Assembly: GCA_017939155.1 (NCBI GenBank)
Contig: JAGAZZ010000044.1
Location: forward strand, 7,756-71,755
Direction: 5' to 3'
Source: Alphaproteobacteria bacterium
GTDB lineage: Bacteria > Pseudomonadota > Alphaproteobacteria > RF32 > CAG-239
Length of the DNA: 64,000 nucleotides
A program made the position numbers and the translations under genes. The notes under the pieces are model-generated. The model was not told where the DNA came from. It made no database searches and was given only the letters and a program-made list of their open reading frames with translations. Every line of letters starts with the position of its first letter. The first letter of the stretch is position 1. Shown here in pieces: positions 4,523 through 56,288 of this stretch.

Positions 4523-4805
4523 TCCATAACCTATGCGAAGCATTCCGTATCCTGCAAATTTTTAACTTGACTTTAACCGCCTCAGTCCCTAAAACAATCA
4601 AAGGGCGATGTAAAAAACACCGCCCCCTGTTCATCTATCGTTTGATAGATAAGAACAATCGGAATTTCCGAATACGGCCGCAAGAAAAAGTGCTATAATG
4701 CACTTTTTATAAGGAGACGCAATGAGACTTATTGAGCGAGGAAAGTGAAAACGACCGAAGCGAAATTTAGTCGGAATTGAATAATTCTTATTTTCATTAT
4801 TTTTG

Positions 4806-4826
4806 CCTTTCAATAATATTGAAAGG
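4806..4826. repeat. perfect 21-bp palindrome CCTTTCAATA-A-TATTGAAAGG
   Basis: Read directly from the sequence. It lies about 20 bp upstream of a TTGACA hexamer (4848-4853) in a non-coding gap. Confidence 0.7.
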
Positions 4827-5050
4827 GGAAAAACCTACATATATATCTTGACAAACAAAATATAATATGCTATCCTCAACTCAAGAAATGAGTAAAAGAT
4901 TAGGTTTTACCCCTTTCGATGGTTGAGTAAATGTCGGTGTTAGCGCACCGGCATAAATTTTATACAAAAAACGATTCGAAAAGTCAAACAAAATTCAGCC
5001 CAAACAAATAACTCATCAAAGCACACAAATTCCAACAAAGCAACGTTTCA

Positions 5051-5230
5051 CGTTTAGTTATGGATTGCTTCAGTAGGTTGCGCTCACGCGCCGACTTCGC
5101 AATGACTCCCTGAAAGACAGGCTTCCCCCACCCCGCGTCATTGCCCCTTAACGCAAACGCCCCTCTCCCCGTGTCATTGCGAGCCCCGCGACGTCAGTCG
5201 CACGAGGGCGCGGCAATCCATAACTAAACG
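5051..5230. repeat. 180-bp GC-rich unit bounded by a perfect 18-bp inverted repeat
   Basis: CGTTTAGTTATGGATTGC at 5051-5068 is the exact reverse complement of 5213-5230. The interior holds GTCATTGC at 5137-5144 and 5173-5180, and its inverse GCAATGAC at 5099-5106. Confidence 0.8.
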
Positions 5231-5271
5231 CGTTAGCGTTGCCTTATCTTTCCGTAGTGGTACAAACTTCT

Positions 5272-5313
5272 CTTAGTGTTGCAAGCGAGCATAGCGAACA
5301 CAGCAACACTTAG
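5272..5313. repeat. palindromic unit AGTGTTGC...GCAACACT (copy 1)
   Basis: An 8-bp perfect stem is followed by ...CGCGCAAG. A second copy with the same arms and tail lies at 5559-5590. Confidence 0.7.
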
Positions 5314-5449
5314 TTGTTCGCGCAAGTAGAAAGGCAACGCCTTTCGTAGCGGCGCAATCCATAACTTGTGCGAAGCACGCCAAGGGCTTGAAAAGTGCAA
5401 TGCTAGAGGTAAATTCCCGACTGCAGTGTACATAAAGGGCGCAAAGACG

Positions 5450-5476
5450 CAAAAACAGTCCGGTGGACTGTTTTTG
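5450..5476. terminator. perfect 12-bp stem / 3-nt loop hairpin (CAAAAACAGTCC-GGT-GGACTGTTTTTG)
   Basis: Read directly. A-rich and T-rich ends give it a bidirectional terminator-like shape. No adjacent gene is assigned. Confidence 0.4.
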
Positions 5477-5558
5477 CCAAGCGCTATAGCAGTTGTTGGT
5501 GCGCGACTTGCCGGAAACAGCAACCAAGCAAACCTTACAACTGGCTTGACCACAGCAA

Positions 5559-5590
5559 GTTAGTGTTGCAAAGCAACACTTACGCGCAAG
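5559..5590. repeat. palindromic unit AGTGTTGC-AAA-GCAACACT (copy 2)
   Basis: Has the same 8-bp arms and the CGCGCAAG tail seen at 5272-5330. Confidence 0.7.
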
Positions 5591-5757
5591 AAGAATTTGC
5601 CTCTATGATTGTGCTTTATCAAGCCCCCTAGGGGTGGGATAATTTGCGAAATAGCCGCGGATGTCCTCCTAGGAACACGAGCGTACATAGACGTACGTGA
5701 CGTTCCGAAGAGAGGCTTCCATCCACGAGCAAGTATCACAAATTAGCACACCCCACA

Positions 5758-7107
5758 CTACGCTCGCCAGGTTTTCATCACTTTATCAATACTATTATTA
5801 ATAATAGTTATCTCCTGGTGCAATTTCTTTGTTTCATAAATTTTTAAAGCAGATTGATAATAGTCGATAGCTTCTGCAAAGGCCATTTTATCACGGCTGT
5901 TTTTACCGATGTTATAATAAACATTGGCGATATTTTCCTGAATCTTCGCCCACATAACCGGATATAGTTCTTTGCGATAAACCTGTTGCTTATTCTTATA
6001 GCTTTTAATCGCTAACATCGAAATATCATTACTCTTGGAAAAAAGCCCCAAAAGGGATAAATAAAATCCCAAATATCCCTCAATTTTAGACCATAATTCC
6101 GGAAAAGAAATTTGCGTATAAGTTTTTTCCGCTTCTCTTAAAAAGTAAACCGCGTCACGTAGCGCCTGAATATCATTGCTGAATTTCCAATACCGAAAAT
6201 AAAGTTGTGACAGTTTAAATGAAATGAGAGCAAAATCGTACGGATAATTATAATGGTCAAGGTGCTTCTGGGCTAAGCGATAGTTTGTAATAGCCTCACG
6301 AAATAACACCCAATATCCGTCTAAATCCTGCTTTAGAGCGTGCTCATAAAGCTGCCCCAAATTTTTATAAATCAATCCTAAATAAACATTTTGCGCAATT
6401 TGGCTTTTGTACGAAAGCGCGTTGTTAAACAACTCTTTTATCGTGTTAAAAGTCTTTTTGCTAAGCTCTCTTTGTACGTAACTCAAATAGATAAGCCCGG
6501 TGGCGTTCATCACAAAAGGCGAAAGCATGAGCTCATCTTGGTTCTTGGCATCGCCATTATTAAATTTTGCGATGACCGTTTTCAAAAGTTTGAGTTTTAA
6601 ATGTCTTAAATCGATTCGCTGCTCGCTGATGGCGGCAGCCGTCATCCCAATAATCAAATTTTCTAAAACTTCAGGGAAAAAGTTAATATGTTCAAAATAT
6701 TGAGCCGGAATATACAAGCTCTCCAAAATGGAGGAAGACACATTTTCCCAGTCAAAATAAGCGTTTGCTGTCTGAAAGTTGAGCCTGATTTTATCATTTT
6801 CCTGATACCCCCAAACAATCACATCCGCGTTAAGCTTTTGCAGAATAGTGTTGCCCGTATCAATTAAACCGAAAAAGTTTCTTCCCTGTAAATTCAAAAA
6901 ACTCTTGTCAAAAGGTTCGTCAAAATAGCGAACGTTAAAATAAGGATATTTTCCTAAAAGCTGAGCCATCTTTTGCCCAAAGCCATAGTTCCCGTACTCG
7001 GCAAATTCTACCACAACAATTTTAAGCGTTTCAACCTTGGGCAACAAACGCTTGTCCATACCATTTTTTCCAAATAAGACTTTTATAAAATTTGCCATCA
7101 GCGTCAT
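5758..7107 (-). CDS. hypothetical protein, C-terminal half made of TPR-like helical repeats
   Basis: 449-aa ORF in an operon-like position after 7119-8171. The C-terminal region has repeated aromatic/Ala/Leu helix-pair patterns (AxxxY..A..YY..AL). AAGGA spacing favours a start at the 4th codon (7098). Confidence 0.6.
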   Translation of the reverse strand: MTLMANFIKVLFGKNGMDKRLLPKVETLKIVVVEFAEYGNYGFGQKMAQLLGKYPYFNVRYFDEPFDKSFLNLQGRNFFGLIDTGNTILQKLNADVIVWGYQENDKIRLNFQTANAYFDWENVSSSILESLYIPAQYFEHINFFPEVLENLIIGMTAAAISEQRIDLRHLKLKLLKTVIAKFNNGDAKNQDELMLSPFVMNATGLIYLSYVQRELSKKTFNTIKELFNNALSYKSQIAQNVYLGLIYKNLGQLYEHALKQDLDGYWVLFREAITNYRLAQKHLDHYNYPYDFALISFKLSQLYFRYWKFSNDIQALRDAVYFLREAEKTYTQISFPELWSKIEGYLGFYLSLLGLFSKSNDISMLAIKSYKNKQQVYRKELYPVMWAKIQENIANVYYNIGKNSRDKMAFAEAIDYYQSALKIYETKKLHQEITIINNSIDKVMKTWRA

Positions 7108-7118
7108 CCTTAACTATG

Positions 7119-8171
7119 CTATTTTTTATCAGTCTTGTTCTTTTTCTTAAATAAAAATCTTGCAACGGTTTTTATCAGCGATAAAAACTCTTGGGGTTTG
7201 GTATCTCCTGATAAAATTGATAAAAACCACACATCAAGTGCCGCGGCAAAAAACGGTACGGCAAAACGCTCGCTTGCGGCAATCTGCATAACCGCCAACA
7301 CCAGATTAATAAACAATATCTTAAAAACGCCATACACAACGCCTTTTTCATAAGCTCCGTTGTTCGAGATTTTATAATAAGCGGTATTCATAAACGCCAT
7401 ATCAATGTTTCGTCTTAAAATAAACCGCTCATAAAAAGCTCTTCCCGTTTCAACCATCAAAAAGGCAACCGCGATAAACATTGAAGATTCGGCATATTCA
7501 TTTGCCCCGTTTAGCATAAAACAGCCCATCACAAAACCAAGGCTTGAAAAAGCCCCATCGCTCATAACAATCTTTTCCGGCGGAAAACTGAAAAAAGCAA
7601 ACGCCAACATCGTCCCGAAATAAGCCGCCGCAATAACCCCCAAAAGGTTAGGAAGCGCATTAAAATATACAAGGGCAATAACAACCGCCATAACCGTTAA
7701 AAACTGCATGGAAGCAATACCGCCTAAACCGTTTAATAATCCGAGACCCTTGGAAATAACAAAAATAATCAAAGCAACTGCAAATTTATCCTCTAAAGGG
7801 GTTAAATGCGGTGCAAACAAAGAAAACTCATCCGGTTGCATAAAACTGATAGCCAAAGCCGCCGCAAATGTAACAAGGCTTGTGACCCATTCAACATCTA
7901 AGAGATACGCGCCATATATGATAAAGGCAAAAATAAACGGTAGCGCAAAATCAACCCAACTGTATGTTTTAATCATATCAGAAAACGTCGGACACAAAAA
8001 ATAAGCTCCGAGCCCCCCGACAAACATAATTCCTATGACATACCAAAAAGGGTCAAGCGCAAACTCATACTCTTCAGGAAAAACATCTGTTTGCAATCTG
8101 CTCAAAAAAAACGTTGCCACTGTAAAACAAATGAGCATTGCTCCAATGCCAATCATCAAAATATCGCTCAT
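7119..8171 (-). CDS. polytopic membrane protein, divergent MraY/WecA (GT4) family-like
   Basis: About 10 TM segments. FPPEKIVMSDGAFSSLGF resembles the WecA motif F-PA-IFMGDxGSxxLGF. LLNGLGGIAS occupies the position of NxxDGxDGLA but lacks both Asp residues. The SD is AAAGGAGGG. Confidence 0.55.
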   Translation of the reverse strand: MSDILMIGIGAMLICFTVATFFLSRLQTDVFPEEYEFALDPFWYVIGIMFVGGLGAYFLCPTFSDMIKTYSWVDFALPFIFAFIIYGAYLLDVEWVTSLVTFAAALAISFMQPDEFSLFAPHLTPLEDKFAVALIIFVISKGLGLLNGLGGIASMQFLTVMAVVIALVYFNALPNLLGVIAAAYFGTMLAFAFFSFPPEKIVMSDGAFSSLGFVMGCFMLNGANEYAESSMFIAVAFLMVETGRAFYERFILRRNIDMAFMNTAYYKISNNGAYEKGVVYGVFKILFINLVLAVMQIAASERFAVPFFAAALDVWFLSILSGDTKPQEFLSLIKTVARFLFKKKNKTDKK

Positions 8172-10921: not shown

Positions 10922-12055
10922 ATGCCAAAAAAGAAAAAGCTGAACAAAAAAATTTTTTATACACTGATTGTAATAATACTCATAGCTTTGGGATATTGGG
11001 CATTGAAATCAAATAAATCGCATATAGACCAAGCGCATTTTGAGATGGGAAAAGTCACCAAAGGAAACCTTGCATACGAAGTAACCGCTACCGGAACAAT
11101 CAACCCGATAAACACAGTCACCGTCGGAACACAGGTTTCCGGTATTGTTGAAAAGGTTCTGGCTGATTATAACGACGACGTCAAAGAAGGACAAGTCTTA
11201 GCTTTGCTCGATTCCTCTACACTTAAAGAACAAATGGAAAAATCAGAGGCAAACTATGAACTAGCCAAAGCCAAAGAAAGCAAAGCTAAACTTAATTATG
11301 AGCGAATTAAAAAGCTCTATCAGGATAAGCTGACATCATCAGCCTCGCTTGAGGACGCTGAAATAGAATATAAAGAATCTTCGGCCAATGTGTTAAGCGC
11401 CAAAGCAGATTATAACATCTCCAAAAAGAATTTTGAATATGCAACAATTACATCGCCGGTGTCCGGCACGGTTATCACCAAAGAAATAGAGCAGGGGCAA
11501 ACCGTCGCCGCCAGTTTTTCTACACCGACACTTTTTGAAGTTGCCGAAGACTTATCTAAAATGCAAATTGAAGCCAGCGTTTCCGAAGCTGACATCGGTT
11601 ACATTAAACCCGATATGCCCGCAACGTTTACCGTAGACGCTTACCCAAATGATAAATTTTTTGGTAAAATCCGCCAAGTTCGCCTCTCGCCGACCGAAGA
11701 ATCAAACGTTGTAATGTATACGGTAATTATTGAAATAGATAATTCATCGCGCAAACTTCTCCCCGGTATGACCGCTTCAGTCAATATTATCGCCGAAGAG
11801 GCAAAAGACGTGCTGATGGTCTCCGCAATGGCTCTGCAATATAAACCCTCTGCGGCGGTTAAAGCTCTGATGGATGTTAAAAAAATAAAAGACATAGCCG
11901 AAAACCAAGATGTCGTTTATTTGTTTGAGAAAGGAAAAATCGTCCCGCGTGTCATCACCAAGGGTTTATCTGATATGACTAATATCGAAGTCAAAGAAGG
12001 ATTATCTTTAGACGAAGAAGTGATTATTGAAGCCAACGAACCGAGGAAGAGATAA
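10922..12055 (+). CDS. macA: efflux periplasmic adaptor (HlyD/MacA family)
   Basis: Has an N-terminal TM anchor, a lipoyl/barrel-sandwich domain and a coiled-coil hairpin. Its stop overlaps the next start (TAATG). Confidence 0.85.
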   Translation: MPKKKKLNKKIFYTLIVIILIALGYWALKSNKSHIDQAHFEMGKVTKGNLAYEVTATGTINPINTVTVGTQVSGIVEKVLADYNDDVKEGQVLALLDSSTLKEQMEKSEANYELAKAKESKAKLNYERIKKLYQDKLTSSASLEDAEIEYKESSANVLSAKADYNISKKNFEYATITSPVSGTVITKEIEQGQTVAASFSTPTLFEVAEDLSKMQIEASVSEADIGYIKPDMPATFTVDAYPNDKFFGKIRQVRLSPTEESNVVMYTVIIEIDNSSRKLLPGMTASVNIIAEEAKDVLMVSAMALQYKPSAAVKALMDVKKIKDIAENQDVVYLFEKGKIVPRVITKGLSDMTNIEVKEGLSLDEEVIIEANEPRKR

Positions 12056-12783
12056 TGGCGGAAAATAAAAAAGTCATAGAGGTCAAACACGTTTATAAAA
12101 CTTATTTTATGGACGGCGGCACCAGTCAGGAAGTCTTAAAGGATATAAACTTCACCATTACCTCCGGTGAGTTTGTTGCCATAATGGGCCCCTCAGGGTC
12201 AGGCAAATCAACTATGATGAATATTTTGGGCTGTCTTGATAAGCCAACCTCGGGCAAATATATTTTAGACGGCTATAACATTGATGACAAAGATGATAAT
12301 GAACTCGCCAAAATCCGCGGCAAAACAATAGGCTTTGTGTTTCAAAATTTTAACCTGATGATGAAGCGTACCATTGCTGATAATGTTTCTTTGCCGCTAA
12401 TCTATCAAAATATCGGTGAAAAAGAGCGTTATAAGCGCGCGGTGGAAATGTTAAAAAAAGTCGGTTTAAACGGCTATCAAAACCGCGTCCCGTCCCAAAT
12501 CTCAGGCGGTATGCAGCAGCGTGTCGCGATTGCCCGCGCTTTAATCAATAATCCTGCCATCATTTTTGCCGATGAACCGACCGGAAATCTGGATAGTAAA
12601 ACCTCTGATGAAATTATGGATTTGTTTACTGAGCTGAACCAACAGGGCATAACCATAGTCTTGGTAACCCACGAAGATGATGTTGCAGACTTTGCAACCC
12701 GAATGATAAAAATCAGTGATGGACATAAAGTTTATGACGGCTTGCGGAAAGCTTACAGCAAAGAAAAGGAAATCAAATGTTAA
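12055..12783 (+). CDS. MacB/LolD-type ABC transporter ATP-binding protein
   Basis: Walker A GPSGSGKST, signature SGGMQQR, Walker B IIFADEPTG. Confidence 0.9.
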   Translation: MAENKKVIEVKHVYKTYFMDGGTSQEVLKDINFTITSGEFVAIMGPSGSGKSTMMNILGCLDKPTSGKYILDGYNIDDKDDNELAKIRGKTIGFVFQNFNLMMKRTIADNVSLPLIYQNIGEKERYKRAVEMLKKVGLNGYQNRVPSQISGGMQQRVAIARALINNPAIIFADEPTGNLDSKTSDEIMDLFTELNQQGITIVLVTHEDDVADFATRMIKISDGHKVYDGLRKAYSKEKEIKC

Positions 12784-14034: not shown

Positions 14035-14075
14035 AAAAAAATCCCCCGCAATTTGAAATTGCGGGGAATTTTTTT
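14035..14075. terminator. bidirectional Rho-independent terminator
   Basis: CCCCGCAATT-TGA-AATTGCGGGG is a perfect 10-bp stem at 14044-14066. It is flanked by an A-run upstream and TTTTTTT downstream, between convergent genes. Confidence 0.85.
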
Positions 14076-14089
14076 AAATTTTGGAGAAA

Positions 14090-14674
14090 CTAGAAAGAAA
14101 TCACCGGGCGTATGAGAGCCCATTCGCCCTTCGGAAGCTTCGCTCCTGGAAACCCGTCATCGATGCCCACTACTGTCTTGCGACCAAGGTTATAATCGTC
14201 GGATGACCAGTAAAGACGATGGAGAGAAAGCTCGGGAGCTTTTAGCGCTCTTAATGCTTCATTTATAGCGGGTACGTTTCCAACTAACGTCCGCAACTCT
14301 TTATATGACGGCATATGCGCTTCGCCCCGTTTCACACCATCTTCAGCATACTTCTTACAGTATTGCTCTGCCTCAACCCATTCCATCCTCTTTTCCTGCA
14401 GACAAACCGCTACCACATCAATCCACGTCCAATACCCCTTTCTATGTACCTCTGCAGACCCGATAACCGCCATAATTTGACGACCTTCGATAATCTCGGC
14501 AGAAACCTGTCCGTTGGCATAAACATACATACCGGGGAAAATGTCTTTCGACTTCCTATCTCGGAGTGTATCAGCGTTACGTTGTAAATAAGCGATAACT
14601 TCATCTATCGATAAGCCGGTTTCTGTTTCTTTAAGTTTTTCTGCAATTGCTTTCAATTTTTCTTCTGCATTCAT
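14090..14674 (-). CDS. DUF1566 (Lcl C-terminal domain)-like protein
   Basis: 194 aa. The pattern EWVEAEQYC...HMPSYKEL...YWSS...IRPV matches the DUF1566 signature as I recall it. No signal peptide and no SD. The gene looks more GC-rich than its surroundings. Confidence 0.55.
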   Translation of the reverse strand: MNAEEKLKAIAEKLKETETGLSIDEVIAYLQRNADTLRDRKSKDIFPGMYVYANGQVSAEIIEGRQIMAVIGSAEVHRKGYWTWIDVVAVCLQEKRMEWVEAEQYCKKYAEDGVKRGEAHMPSYKELRTLVGNVPAINEALRALKAPELSLHRLYWSSDDYNLGRKTVVGIDDGFPGAKLPKGEWALIRPVISF

Positions 14675-14744
14675 AATGATAACTGATTAAATTAATAATA
14701 TATATTACACTACCCATTATACTACACATAAACAAAAAAAGCAA
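14675..14744 (-). promoter_or_regulatory. promoter/leader module a: TTGCTT-17-TATAAT-16-ATTATTAAT-16-ATG
   Basis: Plus-strand coordinates are -35 at 14739-14744, -10 at 14716-14721 and the 9-mer box at 14691-14699. The leader has no GGAG/AGGA. Confidence 0.55.
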
Positions 14745-15472: not shown

Positions 15473-15499
15473 AAAGTACTCCCTAATTAATAATTATAA

Positions 15500-21734: not shown

Positions 21735-21737
21735 AAA

Positions 21738-21764
21738 ACTCCCTGTTTAAAAAAAACAGGGAGT
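21738..21764. terminator. hairpin ACTCCCTGTTT-AAAAA-AAACAGGGAGT
   Basis: Perfect 11-bp stem. On the minus strand it is followed by TTTTT and so terminates gene 21802-22134. The stem sequence recurs at 22218-22240. Confidence 0.7.
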
Positions 21765-21801
21765 CTTACAACATCATTAAGGCTTATAATGCTCATTTGT
21801 G

Positions 21802-22134
21802 TTAGCAAGCCTGAGTATAGTTTGAATATATATATTCAAGCAAAGGCCAAGACAAAAGCACTACCAAAAGGAATAAAAGCAACAAAAAAAGTCGCTGTAT
21901 AAAACAAACTGGCTCATAATAACGGCTTGTAGGGTCAGTCTCATCAGTGTCTGCAAGGTTGGTTATATAACCAAAAGCCATTAAACCAACAAAAGCCACG
22001 GCACAAAAGACTCCACCCCAAAACCATTCAGGATGTTGTCCCATCGAGAGAAACCAACCAATAAAATAACCGGCACCTCCGCCAGCGGACGCAAGTAAAA
22101 GCATCCCATACATAAATTTTAACACTTGTTTCAT
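21802..22134 (-). CDS. small membrane protein (3 predicted TM), no recognisable family
   Basis: I placed the start at the ATG at 22134 (MKQVLKF...), giving 110 aa. The gene sits between shared promoter/leader module b and a hairpin terminator. No SD. Confidence 0.5.
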   Translation of the reverse strand: MKQVLKFMYGMLLLASAGGGAGYFIGWFLSMGQHPEWFWGGVFCAVAFVGLMAFGYITNLADTDETDPTSRYYEPVCFIQRLFLLLLFLLVVLLSWPLLEYIYSNYTQAC

Positions 22135-22208
22135 AATAATTTTTTTTTTAAAGATTAATAATAAAATACTTCGAAGACAAAAATAGCACAAAAAAAGAAT
22201 AAAAGCAA
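22135..22208 (-). promoter_or_regulatory. promoter/leader module b: TTGCTT-17-TATTTT-17-ATTATTAAT-20-ATG
   Basis: -35 at 22203-22208, -10 at 22180-22185 (preceded by the TGTGC extended -10) and box at 22154-22162. The whole spacer is homologous to 22704-22785. Confidence 0.55.
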
Positions 22209-22217
22209 CAAAAAAAT

Positions 22218-22240
22218 TCCCTGTTTATAGCAAACAGGGA
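22218..22240 (-). terminator. hairpin TCCCTGTTT-ATAGC-AAACAGGGA + T-run
   Basis: On the minus strand the stem is followed by TTTTTTT. It terminates gene 22254-22703 and has the same stem as 21738-21764. Confidence 0.75.
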
Positions 22241-22253
22241 GTTTTTAAATGTG

Positions 22254-22703
22254 TCATCTTCTTTTTAGTTTTTTAACCACTTGCGGACAAAGCGCCAAAG
22301 TTGTTGCAAGGGCAAGACCAATGAGCGTTCCAATGCCGCTAAGCTTATCAGCGGCAAATAGACCAATCAGACCGCAAGCAGAAATCATGCAAGAACAGTA
22401 ATAGCCGCCATAAAACCCAACTTTTACAGAAAATAAAAAGTCCCAGTTACGAATACGGAAAACTTTGACAATCAACCAGTACCCGACACCTAAAATTAAT
22501 GCGGCGAGAGCGCCGATTTTAAGCTGTCCAATAGCGTCTGCCATTGTATCTATCTCAACGATAGATACGATATTAAAGACTAATGTCATCGCCAAAATAG
22601 CCGAAGCTAATAGGCATAAGAAGTAAAACACCGGCACGATAGCCTCAATAAACTTCTCACACAGGGTTAGACCGAACCCAATCACACAATCTAATTTTTT
22701 CAT
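22254..22703 (-). CDS. small membrane protein (about 4 TM), no recognisable family
   Basis: 149-aa hydrophobic ORF lying between module c and its hairpin terminator. No SD. Confidence 0.55.
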   Translation of the reverse strand: MKKLDCVIGFGLTLCEKFIEAIVPVFYFLCLLASAILAMTLVFNIVSIVEIDTMADAIGQLKIGALAALILGVGYWLIVKVFRIRNWDFLFSVKVGFYGGYYCSCMISACGLIGLFAADKLSGIGTLIGLALATTLALCPQVVKKLKRR

Positions 22704-22776
22704 AATAATAATTTTTTTTAAGATTAATAATAAAATTCCTAAAACCGAATATACAGCAAATCAAAGTTAAAAGCAA
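22704..22776 (-). promoter_or_regulatory. promoter/leader module c: TTGCTT-17-TATATT-16-ATTATTAAT-19-ATG
   Basis: -35 at 22771-22776, -10 at 22748-22753 and box at 22723-22731. Confidence 0.55.
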
Positions 22777-53520: not shown

Positions 53521-54801
53521 CTATCTTGTCTTTGAATCCTTAAAGAATTTTACAAAGTTTTTGAGCCGGCCTCTACCTTTTTGCGAGATGATGTCATTTG
53601 ACACAAGCCCTTTTTTAATCAGCTTTTTTCTCAGCTCACAGGCGCATTTTTTTATCGACATATCAACTTTTTTCGCATCTTCCCAGCCATTGACCTGATG
53701 TTGCATAGCGCGTAAAATCTTCATAATCGAAGCCGTGTGCGTATCTGTTCCCGCAAGTTCATTAGCAACATTTGGGTAGGAATAAACCATAGAAAGCGGT
53801 AGGAGCGGCTTAAATTTTTCAGGATATTCCCCAAGTTTTGAATCAAACCTCCCGCCTGCAGAAACGCGGTACGGGTGCGCCACGCAGTTGCCGATAATAA
53901 TGTCTTGTGCAATTCCGTTCAAATCATCGTATGACAAATATCTGTCTTTTTCCTTTAATGCCACCGGCACATCGGGAATATAAAAGTTCGTCCCGGCAAC
54001 CTTGCCCTCATCTTCTAAATGTTGAAAGCCGAACGCAAACTCAGAAGCAATCCTTTTTTGATAAGCCGGATACCCGAACATAACAAAGTTAACATCTCTG
54101 TCTTTATCAAAAAATCTGTTCCTGATTTCCGCCAGCATTTCAATATTATCTGCCGTAGAAATATCTTTTGGCGTCACCAAACATTCTTTAACAAATTTTT
54201 TATGCACGCCGCACGCCTTAAAAAAGCGCACATACATTTCAACTTCGGATTTAACGTTAAATTCAAGCTTTTTATCGCTGAAATTCGTATTCCCTTGATT
54301 GTCATGCAAGCCTAAAAAGACAAGTTTCTTCGGTTTGCCGTTTTTCTTAAAATCGTTATACCAGGCTTCAACCGCCGCCGCTCCCGACCCCGGATGACCG
54401 GAAAATATCACAAACGCGTCAGCCTCTTTAGGGATGTCTAAATAATCAACACCCTTAATTTCACGTTCGTAGCCGTCATATTTAATAACATCGCCGTTTT
54501 TAATCCGCCCCAAGTCTTCGGCTTCCAAAACCGTCTTTTTTTCTTCCTTAGAGAGCTTAAAGGTGACAATATCTGTCCTGTTTTTGACATATTCTTTAGC
54601 CATATTCGCCGCTTTAACGATATTAACATCAGACAATGACAAAAGGCTCTCGGCGTATGCAATGTCTTTGATATATTGCAGATAATCTTTTTTTATAAGT
54701 CCACGGGCTTTCCACTCTTTTTCATAATCTTTATAGTCTTTAAGTTCGCTGTTGGTATAATCTAGAACAATTTGTTCATATACGGTCGGTTTATAGCTCA
54801 T
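53521..54801 (-). CDS. hypothetical protein with a central DUF218 (YdcF/ElyC)-like region
   Basis: 426 aa. AFVIFSG...SEVEMYVRFFKACGV...DISTADNIEM...VNFVMFGYPAYQKRIA follows the DUF218 order of motifs. The SD is GAGGAG. The assignment is tentative. Confidence 0.5.
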   Translation of the reverse strand: MSYKPTVYEQIVLDYTNSELKDYKDYEKEWKARGLIKKDYLQYIKDIAYAESLLSLSDVNIVKAANMAKEYVKNRTDIVTFKLSKEEKKTVLEAEDLGRIKNGDVIKYDGYEREIKGVDYLDIPKEADAFVIFSGHPGSGAAAVEAWYNDFKKNGKPKKLVFLGLHDNQGNTNFSDKKLEFNVKSEVEMYVRFFKACGVHKKFVKECLVTPKDISTADNIEMLAEIRNRFFDKDRDVNFVMFGYPAYQKRIASEFAFGFQHLEDEGKVAGTNFYIPDVPVALKEKDRYLSYDDLNGIAQDIIIGNCVAHPYRVSAGGRFDSKLGEYPEKFKPLLPLSMVYSYPNVANELAGTDTHTASIMKILRAMQHQVNGWEDAKKVDMSIKKCACELRKKLIKKGLVSNDIISQKGRGRLKNFVKFFKDSKTR

Positions 54802-54866
54802 GCCGATTTCTCCTCTGTTGTAATATAGCTATATCTTATCTCAAAAAAGTAAATTAATCAATAAAA

Positions 54867-54896
54867 AACACTTAAACCCATAAGGGCTTAAGTGTT
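54867..54896. terminator. bidirectional terminator after gene 54903-55466
   Basis: AACACTTAAACCC-ATAA-GGGCTTAAGTGTT is a 13-bp stem with one mismatch, flanked by an A-run and a T-run. Confidence 0.7.
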
Positions 54897-54902
54897 TTTT
54901 TG

Positions 54903-55466
54903 TCAGAGAGTAAACTCCTTGGGGAGATTGTACTTCTCACAGAGAAAATCAACTCTGCGAGAAATGTCATCATTCCACCTGAGGCGCTCGTCACGAATAA
55001 AGGCGACAAGCTCTCCGGAAGCCTTCCGCACACTCTCGGCTTTTTCACCAAGATGTTTGAGCAAACGCTCCTCTGCGGAACCTTCACCTTTAAGAACAAG
55101 TGTGACCTTGTCCTCTGCAGGAACCGGCTCTACCCCGGGAATAATCCGCCCCGAGATAACCGAACAAGCCTCCTCAAACGTCAAAACGACTGTTTTGGGC
55201 TTGTTTGCCTCAGCAGACTTTTCCTTTTTTACGCGTGGTGCAGCCGGAAGGCGAAAGCCCTCGTTGTGCTTCTCGGCAGCTCGCGAAACTTCACAGCCGC
55301 AAAAAGTTGGCTGCCAGAAAGCATCTCTGCCGATACCTTCTTTATGAGTGATAAGCCTCCTGCCGCAAAATGCGCAGTAACACTCATTGTCACTCTCCCA
55401 GCGATACAAAGAAAAAAACTTGTCCCGAGGGGTATTCTTAATCTCATTTATTGTTATATTTTTCAT
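54903..55466 (-). CDS. hypothetical Cys-rich protein (CxCxxC...CxC)
   Basis: 187 aa counted from the ATG at 55466; the ORF track starts at a GTG at 55481. It contains CYCAFCGRRL...FCGCE. The gene looks GC-rich, with shadow ORFs in several frames. No SD and no recognised family. Confidence 0.5.
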   Translation of the reverse strand: MKNITINEIKNTPRDKFFSLYRWESDNECYCAFCGRRLITHKEGIGRDAFWQPTFCGCEVSRAAEKHNEGFRLPAAPRVKKEKSAEANKPKTVVLTFEEACSVISGRIIPGVEPVPAEDKVTLVLKGEGSAEERLLKHLGEKAESVRKASGELVAFIRDERLRWNDDISRRVDFLCEKYNLPKEFTL

Positions 55467-55575
55467 AATTGTAACTGCCACGGACTATCAATGAATGATA
55501 GTTTAATACGTAGCCTTCTAAATTAATAATATTTGTTTACAAACTTAGTATATCACAAAATCAGGGCAAATGCAA
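55467..55575 (-). promoter_or_regulatory. promoter/leader module d: TTGCAT-17-TATACT-16-ATTATTAAT-55-ATG
   Basis: -35 at 55570-55575, -10 at 55547-55552 (TGTGA extended -10) and box at 55522-55530. About 75 bp are homologous to module e. Confidence 0.55.
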
Positions 55576-55611
55576 GAACTTTTAACAACGGAAAAAACTC
55601 TAATTTAAATG

Positions 55612-55638
55612 AAAAAAACGGCTTATTGAAAGCCGTTT
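55612..55638 (-). terminator. Rho-independent terminator after gene 55644-56138
   Basis: On the minus strand, AAACGGCTT-TCAAT-AAGCCGTTT is followed by TTTTTTT. Confidence 0.8.
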
Positions 55639-55643
55639 AAATC

Positions 55644-56138
55644 TTAAGTTTCAGCAGGAACCCAACCTAAATCCCAGCCGACATAGGTGAAAGGTCGAGT
55701 AGCGATAAGCTCAAGCGAGATTGTGTCGCCAACCTTTGGTATTGTCTTCAATTTTTCTGTGTCAAAGACAATTTCACCATAAACAGGACTTTTGAGAACT
55801 GTGTTCTCACCGACAAACAAAACCTCAAACTTTTCAACGATTTCATCTATTCGGATATCCAAATAGTGACCGCCGCTGACAAGTGTGCAGGGAATAAAAA
55901 CATTATTTTGCAATCCATGACACCTGGAGATTTTTCCACTCACCTCCTCAACGAGATTTTTGTTTTCATCAAAGAACTCTCTTGAGTGGGGGTGGATGAA
56001 GCCCTTTTTCCCGATGAACTTTCCGTATTTCTTCAAAAAGTTCTTCCTCGCACATTCGTTCAGATAGTTAGGTCCCCATTTAAAAACGAAAAATAGCAAT
56101 ACAATAAGAAATGCTACTGTTAATAATAATTCTTTCAT
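55644..56138 (-). CDS. hypothetical membrane-anchored protein
   Basis: 164 aa with one N-terminal TM helix (LLLTVAFLIVLLFFVF). No SD and no recognised family. Confidence 0.5.
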   Translation of the reverse strand: MKELLLTVAFLIVLLFFVFKWGPNYLNECARKNFLKKYGKFIGKKGFIHPHSREFFDENKNLVEEVSGKISRCHGLQNNVFIPCTLVSGGHYLDIRIDEIVEKFEVLFVGENTVLKSPVYGEIVFDTEKLKTIPKVGDTISLELIATRPFTYVGWDLGWVPAET

Positions 56139-56209
56139 AGTCGTAATTTTTTAATGATTAATAATAAATTTAACAAACTTAACATATCACATTTTTTCGC
56201 CCAATGCAA
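56139..56209 (-). promoter_or_regulatory. promoter/leader module e: TTGCAT-17-TATGTT-15-ATTATTAAT-18-ATG
   Basis: -35 at 56204-56209, -10 at 56181-56186 (TGTGA extended -10) and box at 56157-56165. Confidence 0.55.
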
Positions 56210-56238
56210 GCTTTTTTGTCAAATTTTTTAAAGGGCAT

Positions 56239-56262
56239 AAAAAAAGGGCGGAAACCCACCCT
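56239..56262 (-). terminator. Rho-independent terminator after pgk
   Basis: On the minus strand, AGGGTGG-GTTT-CCGCCCT (one G-U pair) is followed by TTTTTTT. Confidence 0.75.
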
Positions 56263-56288
56263 CTTAAAAGAAAAACAGTATCTGTTTA

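Follow-up and report, generated by a model that had tools for sequence, protein, structure and literature searches.

The 64-kb stretch of contig JAGAZZ010000044.1 analysed here (64,000 nucleotides, positions 7,756 to 71,755 of the forward strand; below, the window) carries five short orphan genes, a to e, each preceded by the same compact arrangement: a promoter, an invariant 10-bp box and a leader that has no Shine-Dalgarno (SD) sequence. We refer to the promoter and the box together as the module. Modules were located as pattern matches and terminators, apart from that of gene d, with a terminator scan; the related genome named below, RGIG8741, is a gut metagenome-assembled genome (MAG). The features are as follows.

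56157-56209, minus strand: module e; -35 TTGCAT at 56204-56209, TG-extended -10 TATGTT at 56181-56186, box TATTATTAAT at 56157-56166; conserved in RGIG8741 locus L103
56139-56156, minus strand: leader e, 18 nt, no SD, unstructured (fold z = +1.31)
55644-56138, minus strand: gene e, 164 amino acids (aa), membrane-anchored orphan
55616-55638, minus strand: intrinsic terminator of gene e
55522-55575, minus strand: module d; -35 TTGCAT at 55570-55575, TG-extended -10 TATACT at 55547-55552, box at 55522-55531
55467-55521, minus strand: leader d, 55 nt, with a stable core hairpin at 55477-55514
54903-55466, minus strand: gene d, 187 aa, Cys-rich orphan, no Pfam family
53573-55601, no strand: island of 2 kb that comprises gene d with its module and an SD-bearing 426-aa orphan, delimited by blastn and alignment of RGIG8741 locus L103 with the window
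22723-22776, minus strand: module c; -35 TTGCTT at 22771-22776, -10 TATATT at 22748-22753, box at 22723-22732
22704-22722, minus strand: leader c, 19 nt
22254-22703, minus strand: gene c, 149 aa, orphan with several transmembrane (TM) segments
22218-22240, minus strand: terminator of gene c
22154-22208, minus strand: module b; -35 TTGCTT at 22203-22208, TG-extended -10 TATTTT at 22180-22185, box at 22154-22163
22135-22153, minus strand: leader b, 19 nt
21802-22134, minus strand: gene b, 110 aa, TM orphan
21735-21767, minus strand: terminator of gene b
14691-14744, minus strand: module a; -35 TTGCTT at 14739-14744, -10 TATAAT at 14716-14721, box at 14691-14700
14675-14690, minus strand: leader a, 16 nt
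14090-14674, minus strand: gene a, 194 aa, with a weakly Lcl_C/DUF1566-like C-terminus
14044-14066, minus strand: terminator hairpin of gene a

The window has five matches to the composite TTGCWT-N17-TATNNT-N15-17-ATTATTAAT, every one on the minus strand and at the positions where the original prediction, made from the letters alone, had placed it; 100 dinucleotide shuffles yielded none, and the excess over shuffled sequence on which that prediction depended is therefore present. Taken by itself, the 9-mer ATTATTAAT gives eight matches against 2.3 expected, and the promoter part TTGCWT-N17-TATNNT gives six, namely the five modules and the gcrA promoter. This last match, together with TTGCAT-17-TATAAG in front of rpoZ, agrees with the proposal that the hexamers are those of ordinary promoters of the organism. 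The -35 sequence TTGCWT is common to all five modules of the window, though relatives also use TTGCAA or TTGACA. When copies are anchored on the box, the proposed 9-mer proves invariant and too short by one position: a T precedes it in every copy, and the invariant element is the 10-mer TATTATTAAT, which contains neither G nor C. The symmetry is likewise wider than the ATTAAT palindrome first noticed, the whole 9-mer being a perfect odd palindrome, ATTA-T-TAAT.

Two distances in the arrangement are constrained. The -10 and the box are 15–17 nt apart in all copies, including those found independently of the DNA pattern (see below), and the box is usually followed by the ATG after 16–19 nt; gene d (55 nt) and a copy in related DNA, L114 (69 nt), lie outside this range, and the spacing of gene b, previously given as 20 nt, measures 19. 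An A/T-rich tract lies upstream of the module promoters, the -10 is often TG-extended, and a pyrimidine-purine step is found 7–8 nt past it. The purine of this step is the predicted transcription start. Being downstream of the -10, the box would then occupy about +9 to +19 of the transcript, in keeping with its predicted location in the leader. Copies with module geometry inside an operon number zero.

An SD is absent in all 15 distinct copies of the module; most other genes of the window have AAGG, GGAG or GAGG 5–15 nt before the start, a distinction already drawn for the five genes here. The leaders are G-poor and A-rich, with the start context ATTATG in 12 of the 15 copies, and of 200 shuffled sequences 186–199 fold better than the leaders of genes a, b, c and e. 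Their make-up thus looks suited to the SD-independent initiation that had been suggested. The longer leader of gene d folds stably (-15.1 kcal/mol, z = -2.4 to -2.75): its 38 extra nucleotides form the hairpin at 55477-55514, which leaves 7 + 10 = 17 single-stranded nucleotides between box and AUG, inside the 16–19 range. A short upstream open reading frame (ORF) running through the box (TAT TAT TAA) was considered and rejected; it has no consistent in-frame start, and its frame relative to the ATG varies.

The genes behind the modules are monocistronic, encode 84–253 aa and are followed by terminators; as predicted, hairpin terminators were found by the scan after a, b, c and e, and that of d is visible in the sequence. 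The box is indeed common to unrelated orphans, and a housekeeping gene stands behind it in none of the 15 distinct copies, so that equal use by housekeeping genes, the other outcome that would have spoken against a dedicated module, was not seen. The neighbouring pairs b/c and d/e were rejected as paralogues for want of significant similarity. The DUF1566-like character ascribed to gene a has some basis in a match to Lcl_C/DUF1566, which is weak and falls below the Pfam cut-off. Genes b–e have no Pfam family and no PHROG family, and none of the ten module proteins searched against PHROGs has a match. Only two protein clusters among 5.8 billion proteins contain gene e. Comparison with the RGIG8741 orthologues indicates purifying selection on gene c and gene e (ratios of non-synonymous to synonymous substitution rates, dN/dS, of 0.34 and 0.56, respectively). 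A search for atypical base composition, which the original prediction had recommended, gave a GC fraction of 0.43 for module genes against 0.405 for the genome. Module genes are therefore not AT-richer than the genome, and xenogeneic silencing of AT-rich foreign DNA was ruled out.

We scanned the composite pattern without the ATG over 185,579 species genomes. At least 114 loci match it, mostly as singletons in AT-rich taxa. The standout matches come from gut (alpha)proteobacterial MAGs: RGIG8741 (three matches), RGIG3845, a Hadza MAG, CAXHMA01 and CASEQD01. The module is present in at least six other MAGs of this kind. Although the pattern did not specify an ATG, the gut MAG matches have the ATG of an ORF of at least 84 aa 16–19 nt past the box, a G-poor, A-rich leader with no SD, and a terminator after the gene. 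Under an objective filter, and among the matches listed, seven gut MAG loci pass against two of about 103 others and one of 26 viral matches; the two passing loci outside the gut MAGs represent one orthologous Bacteroidota-group locus. All 26 viral matches are singletons, and only one of them looks module-like. With singleton viral matches and no PHROGs hit among the ten proteins, an origin as phage morons or prophage genes was ruled out. A scan of JGI metagenomes with the full pattern plus ATTATG returned one match (L143, 30% GC), which could be due to chance. Another 18 kb or so past the window ends added no copy, so that about 82 kb hold five modules.

A less biased sample is provided by distant homologues of gene a (34–39% identity), which were found by protein search alone and turned out to be preceded by the same module.

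L153, copy 2: TTGCAA-17-TATGGT-15-box
L153, copy 1, and L154: TTGCAA-18-TATAGT-15-box
L160 and L161: TTGACA-17-TATATT-17-box-17-ATG
L162: TTGCAT-17-TATCGT-15-box-19-ATG

At L162, the automated gene call (555-1334) begins at a TTG that belongs to the module's -35 hexamer, from which it follows that the deposited protein is N-terminally over-extended. The start called for L159 (134-727) falls within sequence matching the region just upstream of the L153 promoter, and it too may be over-extended.

Genes a–e, the two L153 copies, L160 and L162 make up nine unbiased copies, that is, copies not selected by the DNA pattern. In these, the 10-mer is 100% identical and the 14-nt flanks are 36% and 47% identical. 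All nine share one orientation and the same centre base. The T before the box is present in nine of nine, and its mirror image, an A after the box, in none (it occurs only in two relatives found by pattern). A profile hidden Markov model run over 284 kb of related DNA recovered full copies only (E ≤ 2e-4), the next matches being noise (E ≥ 0.29), and no near-miss copies with up to two mismatches were found at equivalent positions. The sole decayed intermediate is L152, the closest orthologue of gene a (65% identity), which keeps the promoter and the SD-less leader and has a degenerate box. The genera with the box span 35–45% GC and several protein families. Judged by this conservation, the box is under strong purifying selection across genera.

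The DNA belongs to an uncultured alphaproteobacterium from the gut, of the ‘Azospirillum sp.’ MAG type: phosphoglycerate kinase (PGK) homologues 89–98% identical to that of the window come from gut metagenomes, some of them labelled as ‘Alphaproteobacteria bacterium’ or ‘Azospirillum sp.’ MAGs, and the window encodes GcrA, an alphaproteobacterial cell-cycle factor. The module is best read as a lineage-specific expression module of gut Alphaproteobacteria of this type.

As to what the box does, we tentatively prefer a strand-specific docking site, in the 5′ untranslated region (5′-UTR) of the RNA or on the non-template strand, that would control SD-independent translation. One dedicated trans-acting factor may dock on the box soon after transcription begins and recognise one strand of it, either as 5′-UTR RNA or, in the manner of ops sites, as the non-template strand exposed in the early elongation complex. 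Such recognition would control or license the SD-independent translation of the whole gene set, which would therefore behave as a regulon of accessory genes. Several properties point in this direction. A selected, orientation-specific, all-or-none 10-mer calls for a highly specific reader. Its exclusive tie to unstructured SD-less leaders and the constrained distance to the ATG link it to translation initiation, and the constrained distance to the -10, with the absence of promoter-less copies, links it to early transcription. The sequence ATT-ATT-AAT could in addition form a 3-bp stem with a triloop, which might reconcile the palindrome with strand specificity. A more explicit version, which we regard as doubtful, makes the 10-mer the loading site of a dedicated factor on the early elongation complex or on the first 20 nt of nascent RNA, where it would substitute for the SD. 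The factor would be associated with RNA polymerase or the ribosome, for example a specialised NusG paralogue or a new RNA-binding protein, and the module would act as a promoter-coupled ‘translation licence’ for block expression of fast-turnover monocistronic orphans.

Several observations weigh against a docking site. Among the genes of the window we saw no candidate factor, no NusG paralogue and no RNA-binding regulator. The position of the box at +9 to +19 depends on a predicted start. The perfect dyad of the 9-mer favours a dimeric DNA-binding protein, and a purely RNA-level mechanism would not need a fixed promoter distance. L152 retains its SD-less leader despite the degenerate box, which implies that the box is not indispensable for translation, and the 69-nt leader of L114 has no structure that would compensate for its length. 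Finally, the box is unlike ops (GGCGGTAG), and its targets are short and monocistronic, unlike the long RfaH and UpxY operons.

Of known systems, ops/RfaH is nevertheless the one that unites the traits of the box. The ops site is a near-invariant element of the non-template strand with a small hairpin, and the SD-less leaders of its targets need the bound factor to recruit the 30S subunit (PMC5995543); UpxY and opsX work similarly in Bacteroides (PMC11685472). Like the box, ops is short, nearly invariant and orientation-specific, and lies in the leader (as defined here by the predicted start) of horizontally variable accessory genes whose leaders lack an SD. The differences are substantial. 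The ops consensus GGCGGTAGnnTG is unrelated to TATTATTAAT; the box keeps a fixed place about 9 nt from the predicted start and 16–19 nt from the ATG; ops serves long operons in need of anti-polarity, the box monocistronic genes of 84–253 aa; and a handful of ops sites per genome contrasts with several boxes per 80 kb. On sequence and operon type, the box does not belong to the ops/RfaH class, and the genes of the window include no NusG paralogue that could serve as its factor.

A classical operator is the alternative that survives best and a serious one, although we consider it less likely than a docking site. A dimeric repressor, or less likely an activator, would bind the duplex ATTA-T-TAAT near +14 and block RNA polymerase, silencing the accessory genes until a signal arrives, and the SD-less leader would be an unrelated feature. 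The perfect odd dyad symmetry of the 9-mer is what such a protein would be expected to need, and the fixed 15–17 nt distance from the -10 keeps the site inside the polymerase footprint. The lac operator O1, centred at +11, occupies a similar position, and repressor operators over +1 to +20 likewise combine a dyad core with a fixed promoter-proximal place common to a gene set. Gene d and L114 keep the distance from promoter to box and not that from box to ATG, and the genes are accessory and strain-variable, like many repressed regulons. The orientation of the box is harder to accommodate. A symmetric dimer should be blind to the difference between ATTATTAAT and ATTAATAAT, yet all nine unbiased copies point one way, for which random orientation gives a chance of 2 × 0.5^9, about 0.4% (independence being assumed, while four of the nine copies share gene-family descent). 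The flanks are asymmetric as well, with the T always before the box and the mirror A never after it in these copies. Both features speak against a symmetric duplex operator and weaken the original suggestion of an operator built on the ATTAAT palindrome, of which the dyad itself stands. Operators, moreover, normally vary from site to site, whereas the box shows no variant copies and has half-sites of only 4 bp. The complete tie to unstructured SD-less leaders and the 16–19 nt spacing to the ATG would be left unexplained.

Base pairing at the RNA level seems improbable. The box would be the seed match for a trans-encoded small RNA (seed AUUAAUAAUA) or an rRNA-complementary enhancer in place of the SD, and an exact, oriented 10-mer in an unstructured translation-initiation region fits either role. 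We also count in its favour that the box of gene b with the bases downstream (UUAAUCUUUAA) resembles the epsilon enhancer of phage T7 gene 10, UUAACUUUA. About 284 kb of related DNA contains no complementary intergenic sequence, though, and an enhancer acting at the ribosome should also serve housekeeping genes, which the box never does. Small RNAs usually pair imperfectly with their targets, at sites whose position varies, and the fixed promoter distance would have no explanation. A wider class, AU-rich S1-dependent enhancers and SD-less A-rich leaders (T7 gene 10 epsilon; the ‘Kozak-like’ starts of Bacteroidetes), shares with the leaders described here an unstructured, A/U-rich and G-poor make-up with A at -3. 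Those signals are compositional, degenerate and genome-wide, in contrast to an exact 10-mer on a few accessory genes of an SD-using organism.

That the box is nothing but a sigma70-dependent promoter-proximal pause site strikes us as quite improbable. TATTAT on the non-template strand would recapture sigma region 2 and cause a pause at about +25 that tunes very strong promoters. The phage 82 late promoter has a -10-like pause element near +10, and like the pause elements of lambda PR', phage 82, lacUV5 and the E. coli distal class, the box has a -10-like hexamer on the non-template strand downstream of a strong sigma70 promoter. TATTAT has both critical bases, A2 and T6, and scores as a -10 hexamer in a consensus scan; a sigma contact would also explain why a T always precedes the 9-mer and why the element keeps strictly to one orientation. 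The element also falls within the initially transcribed region, a site of sigma-dependent pauses (PMC7876045). Against this, sigma requires about six loosely conserved bases, whereas all ten positions of the box are invariant even though the true -10 elements of the same promoters vary (TATAAT, TATGTT, TATCGT and others). Pause elements of the E. coli class have their -10-like region 11 bp past the -10 (PMC7876045); here the two hexamers are 20–22 bp apart, measured start to start. Neither the coupling to SD-less leaders nor the ATG spacing would follow from a pause.

That the box has no specific function, being a frozen remnant of one ancestral promoter-leader spread by local duplication, is highly unlikely: neighbouring modules are slightly more alike (b–c 0.70, d–e 0.68) than other pairs (0.50–0.64) and cassette b lies between two copies of one terminator, yet the flanks have drifted to composition-level identity (36–47%) around ten consecutive bases that are 100% identical across genera and protein families, and the profile search met no decayed intermediates except L152.

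Other identities were tried and rejected. A second sense promoter with the box as its -10 has no -35-like hexamer 16–18 bp upstream, because that position is taken by the first -10. An antisense promoter with AATAAT as -10 and TTCATA (the reverse complement of TATGAA) as -35 would have a spacer of 18–21 bp, a length tolerable in just two copies, those whose leader is 16 nt long. No module has the GG at -24 of a sigma54 promoter (TGGCAC-N5-TTGCW), and a canonical -10 stands 17 bp downstream instead. A CtrA box, TTAA-N7-TTAA, was dismissed by eye, no second TTAA lying 7 nt from that of the box in the copies checked, and neither GANTC/GcrA sites nor a Fur box are consistently present in the modules. 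A mobile promoter-carrying repeat, such as a miniature inverted-repeat transposable element or a Correia-like element, was rejected since identity is confined to the motifs, with flanks at 36–47%, and no repeat family was reported.

A further parallel is the PmrA box of Legionella and Coxiella, cTTAATatT-N2-cTTAATatT, which marks effector regulons; it works as an activator site and consists of a tandem repeat located before the -10. Both cases place one short A/T-rich motif before many unrelated lineage-specific accessory genes, and the organism studied here encodes an ankyrin-repeat protein and one type IV secretion component, a VirB8-like protein. The box differs in being single, downstream of the -10 and bound to the leader geometry. 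The VirB8-like gene (42341-43141) and the ankyrin-repeat gene (31904-32821) each stand solitary among housekeeping genes, which hints weakly that the organism has a type IV secretion system and interacts with eukaryotic cells.

Regulons marked by a shared promoter-proximal motif are known, but the combination found here is not: an exact 10-mer, a double spacing constraint, an SD-less leader and orphan monocistronic cassettes. The Rfam 15 covariance models gave no match at the gathering threshold and, at E ≤ 1, none overlapping a module; no rRNA, tRNA or other Rfam-detectable RNA was found in the window. A literature search for the 9-mer returned only barcodes, primers and unrelated operators (Helicobacter pylori NikR half-sites). 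The element is therefore undescribed in Rfam, in phage families and in the literature searched, in line with the original statement that no system with this signature was known. It outlines a putative and testable regulon, in a common uncultured gut lineage, made entirely of proteins without known relatives. If the box does couple early transcription to SD-independent translation, the RfaH/ops principle would reach monocistronic genes and a new phylum-level context; an operator would instead identify which strain-variable accessory genes a master regulator controls. In either case, the expression TATNNT-N14-16-TATTATTAAT-N16-19-ATG serves as a one-line handle that retrieves the set from metagenomes and corrects gene-start calls such as that of L162.

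Close relatives differ in the presence of whole cassettes. RGIG8741 DNA is 88–95% identical to the window, and genes c and e are present there with their modules. In the orthologue of c (locus L049), the module and promoter-leader are 83–97% identical per 30-nt window and the protein 62%; the coding sequence (22254-22703 against 3830-4280 of L049) is 73% identical at the nucleotide level, with a synonymous divergence (dS) of 0.71, between flanks of about 88–93%. Divergence is centred on the membrane-spanning middle of the gene, where identity drops to 53–70%. Cassette b (about 21765-22178) and the 2-kb island with gene d and the 426-aa orphan are absent from RGIG8741. The terminators of b and c are copies of one hairpin (ACTCCCTGTTT...AAACAGGGAGTTTT), and cassette b lies exactly between the two copies, of which RGIG8741 has one. 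This fits either an insertion with terminator duplication or a deletion through recombination between the repeats.

Gene turnover is concentrated in the slot directly downstream of pgk (window 53573-56288), which contains e, d and the 426-aa orphan here, and in other relatives (L144–L151, about 11200-12700) a pilin-like (Bundlin/PilS) gene, a 265-aa orphan on the opposite strand, or orphans of 249–735 aa. Most of the slot orphans of relatives have an SD, and two orthologous ones (L149/L150) have none. The pgk loci of three related genomes (63 kb) contain no box in module context.

Partial or displaced matches to the box occur elsewhere in the window. A 71-aa orphan at 45237-45452, with no SD, stands behind TTGCCA-17-TATAAG, and some 11 nt past the -10 the sequence AATTAAT resembles the box only in part; the module profile did not detect this orphan. 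Chance probably explains the 9-mer at 15486-15494 (10-mer AATTATTAAT), 13 nt before a thioredoxin-like gene that has a normal SD, GGGAG; no TTGCWT/TATNNT promoter accompanies it. An 18-bp perfect palindrome, ACTATTATTAATAATAGT, at 5791-5808 holds the box on both strands (9-mer matches at 5794 and 5797). It is located within the 3′ end of a 449-aa orphan ORF (5758-7107), has no promoter context and is conserved in L155, a 96%-identical strain. Between ftsK and this orphan, about 1 kb of GC-rich, ORF-poor sequence without an Rfam match (4780-5760) is dense in short repeats, both inverted and direct (CATTGCG...CGCAATG and AATCCATAAC among them); in L155 this stretch is rearranged and partly absent.

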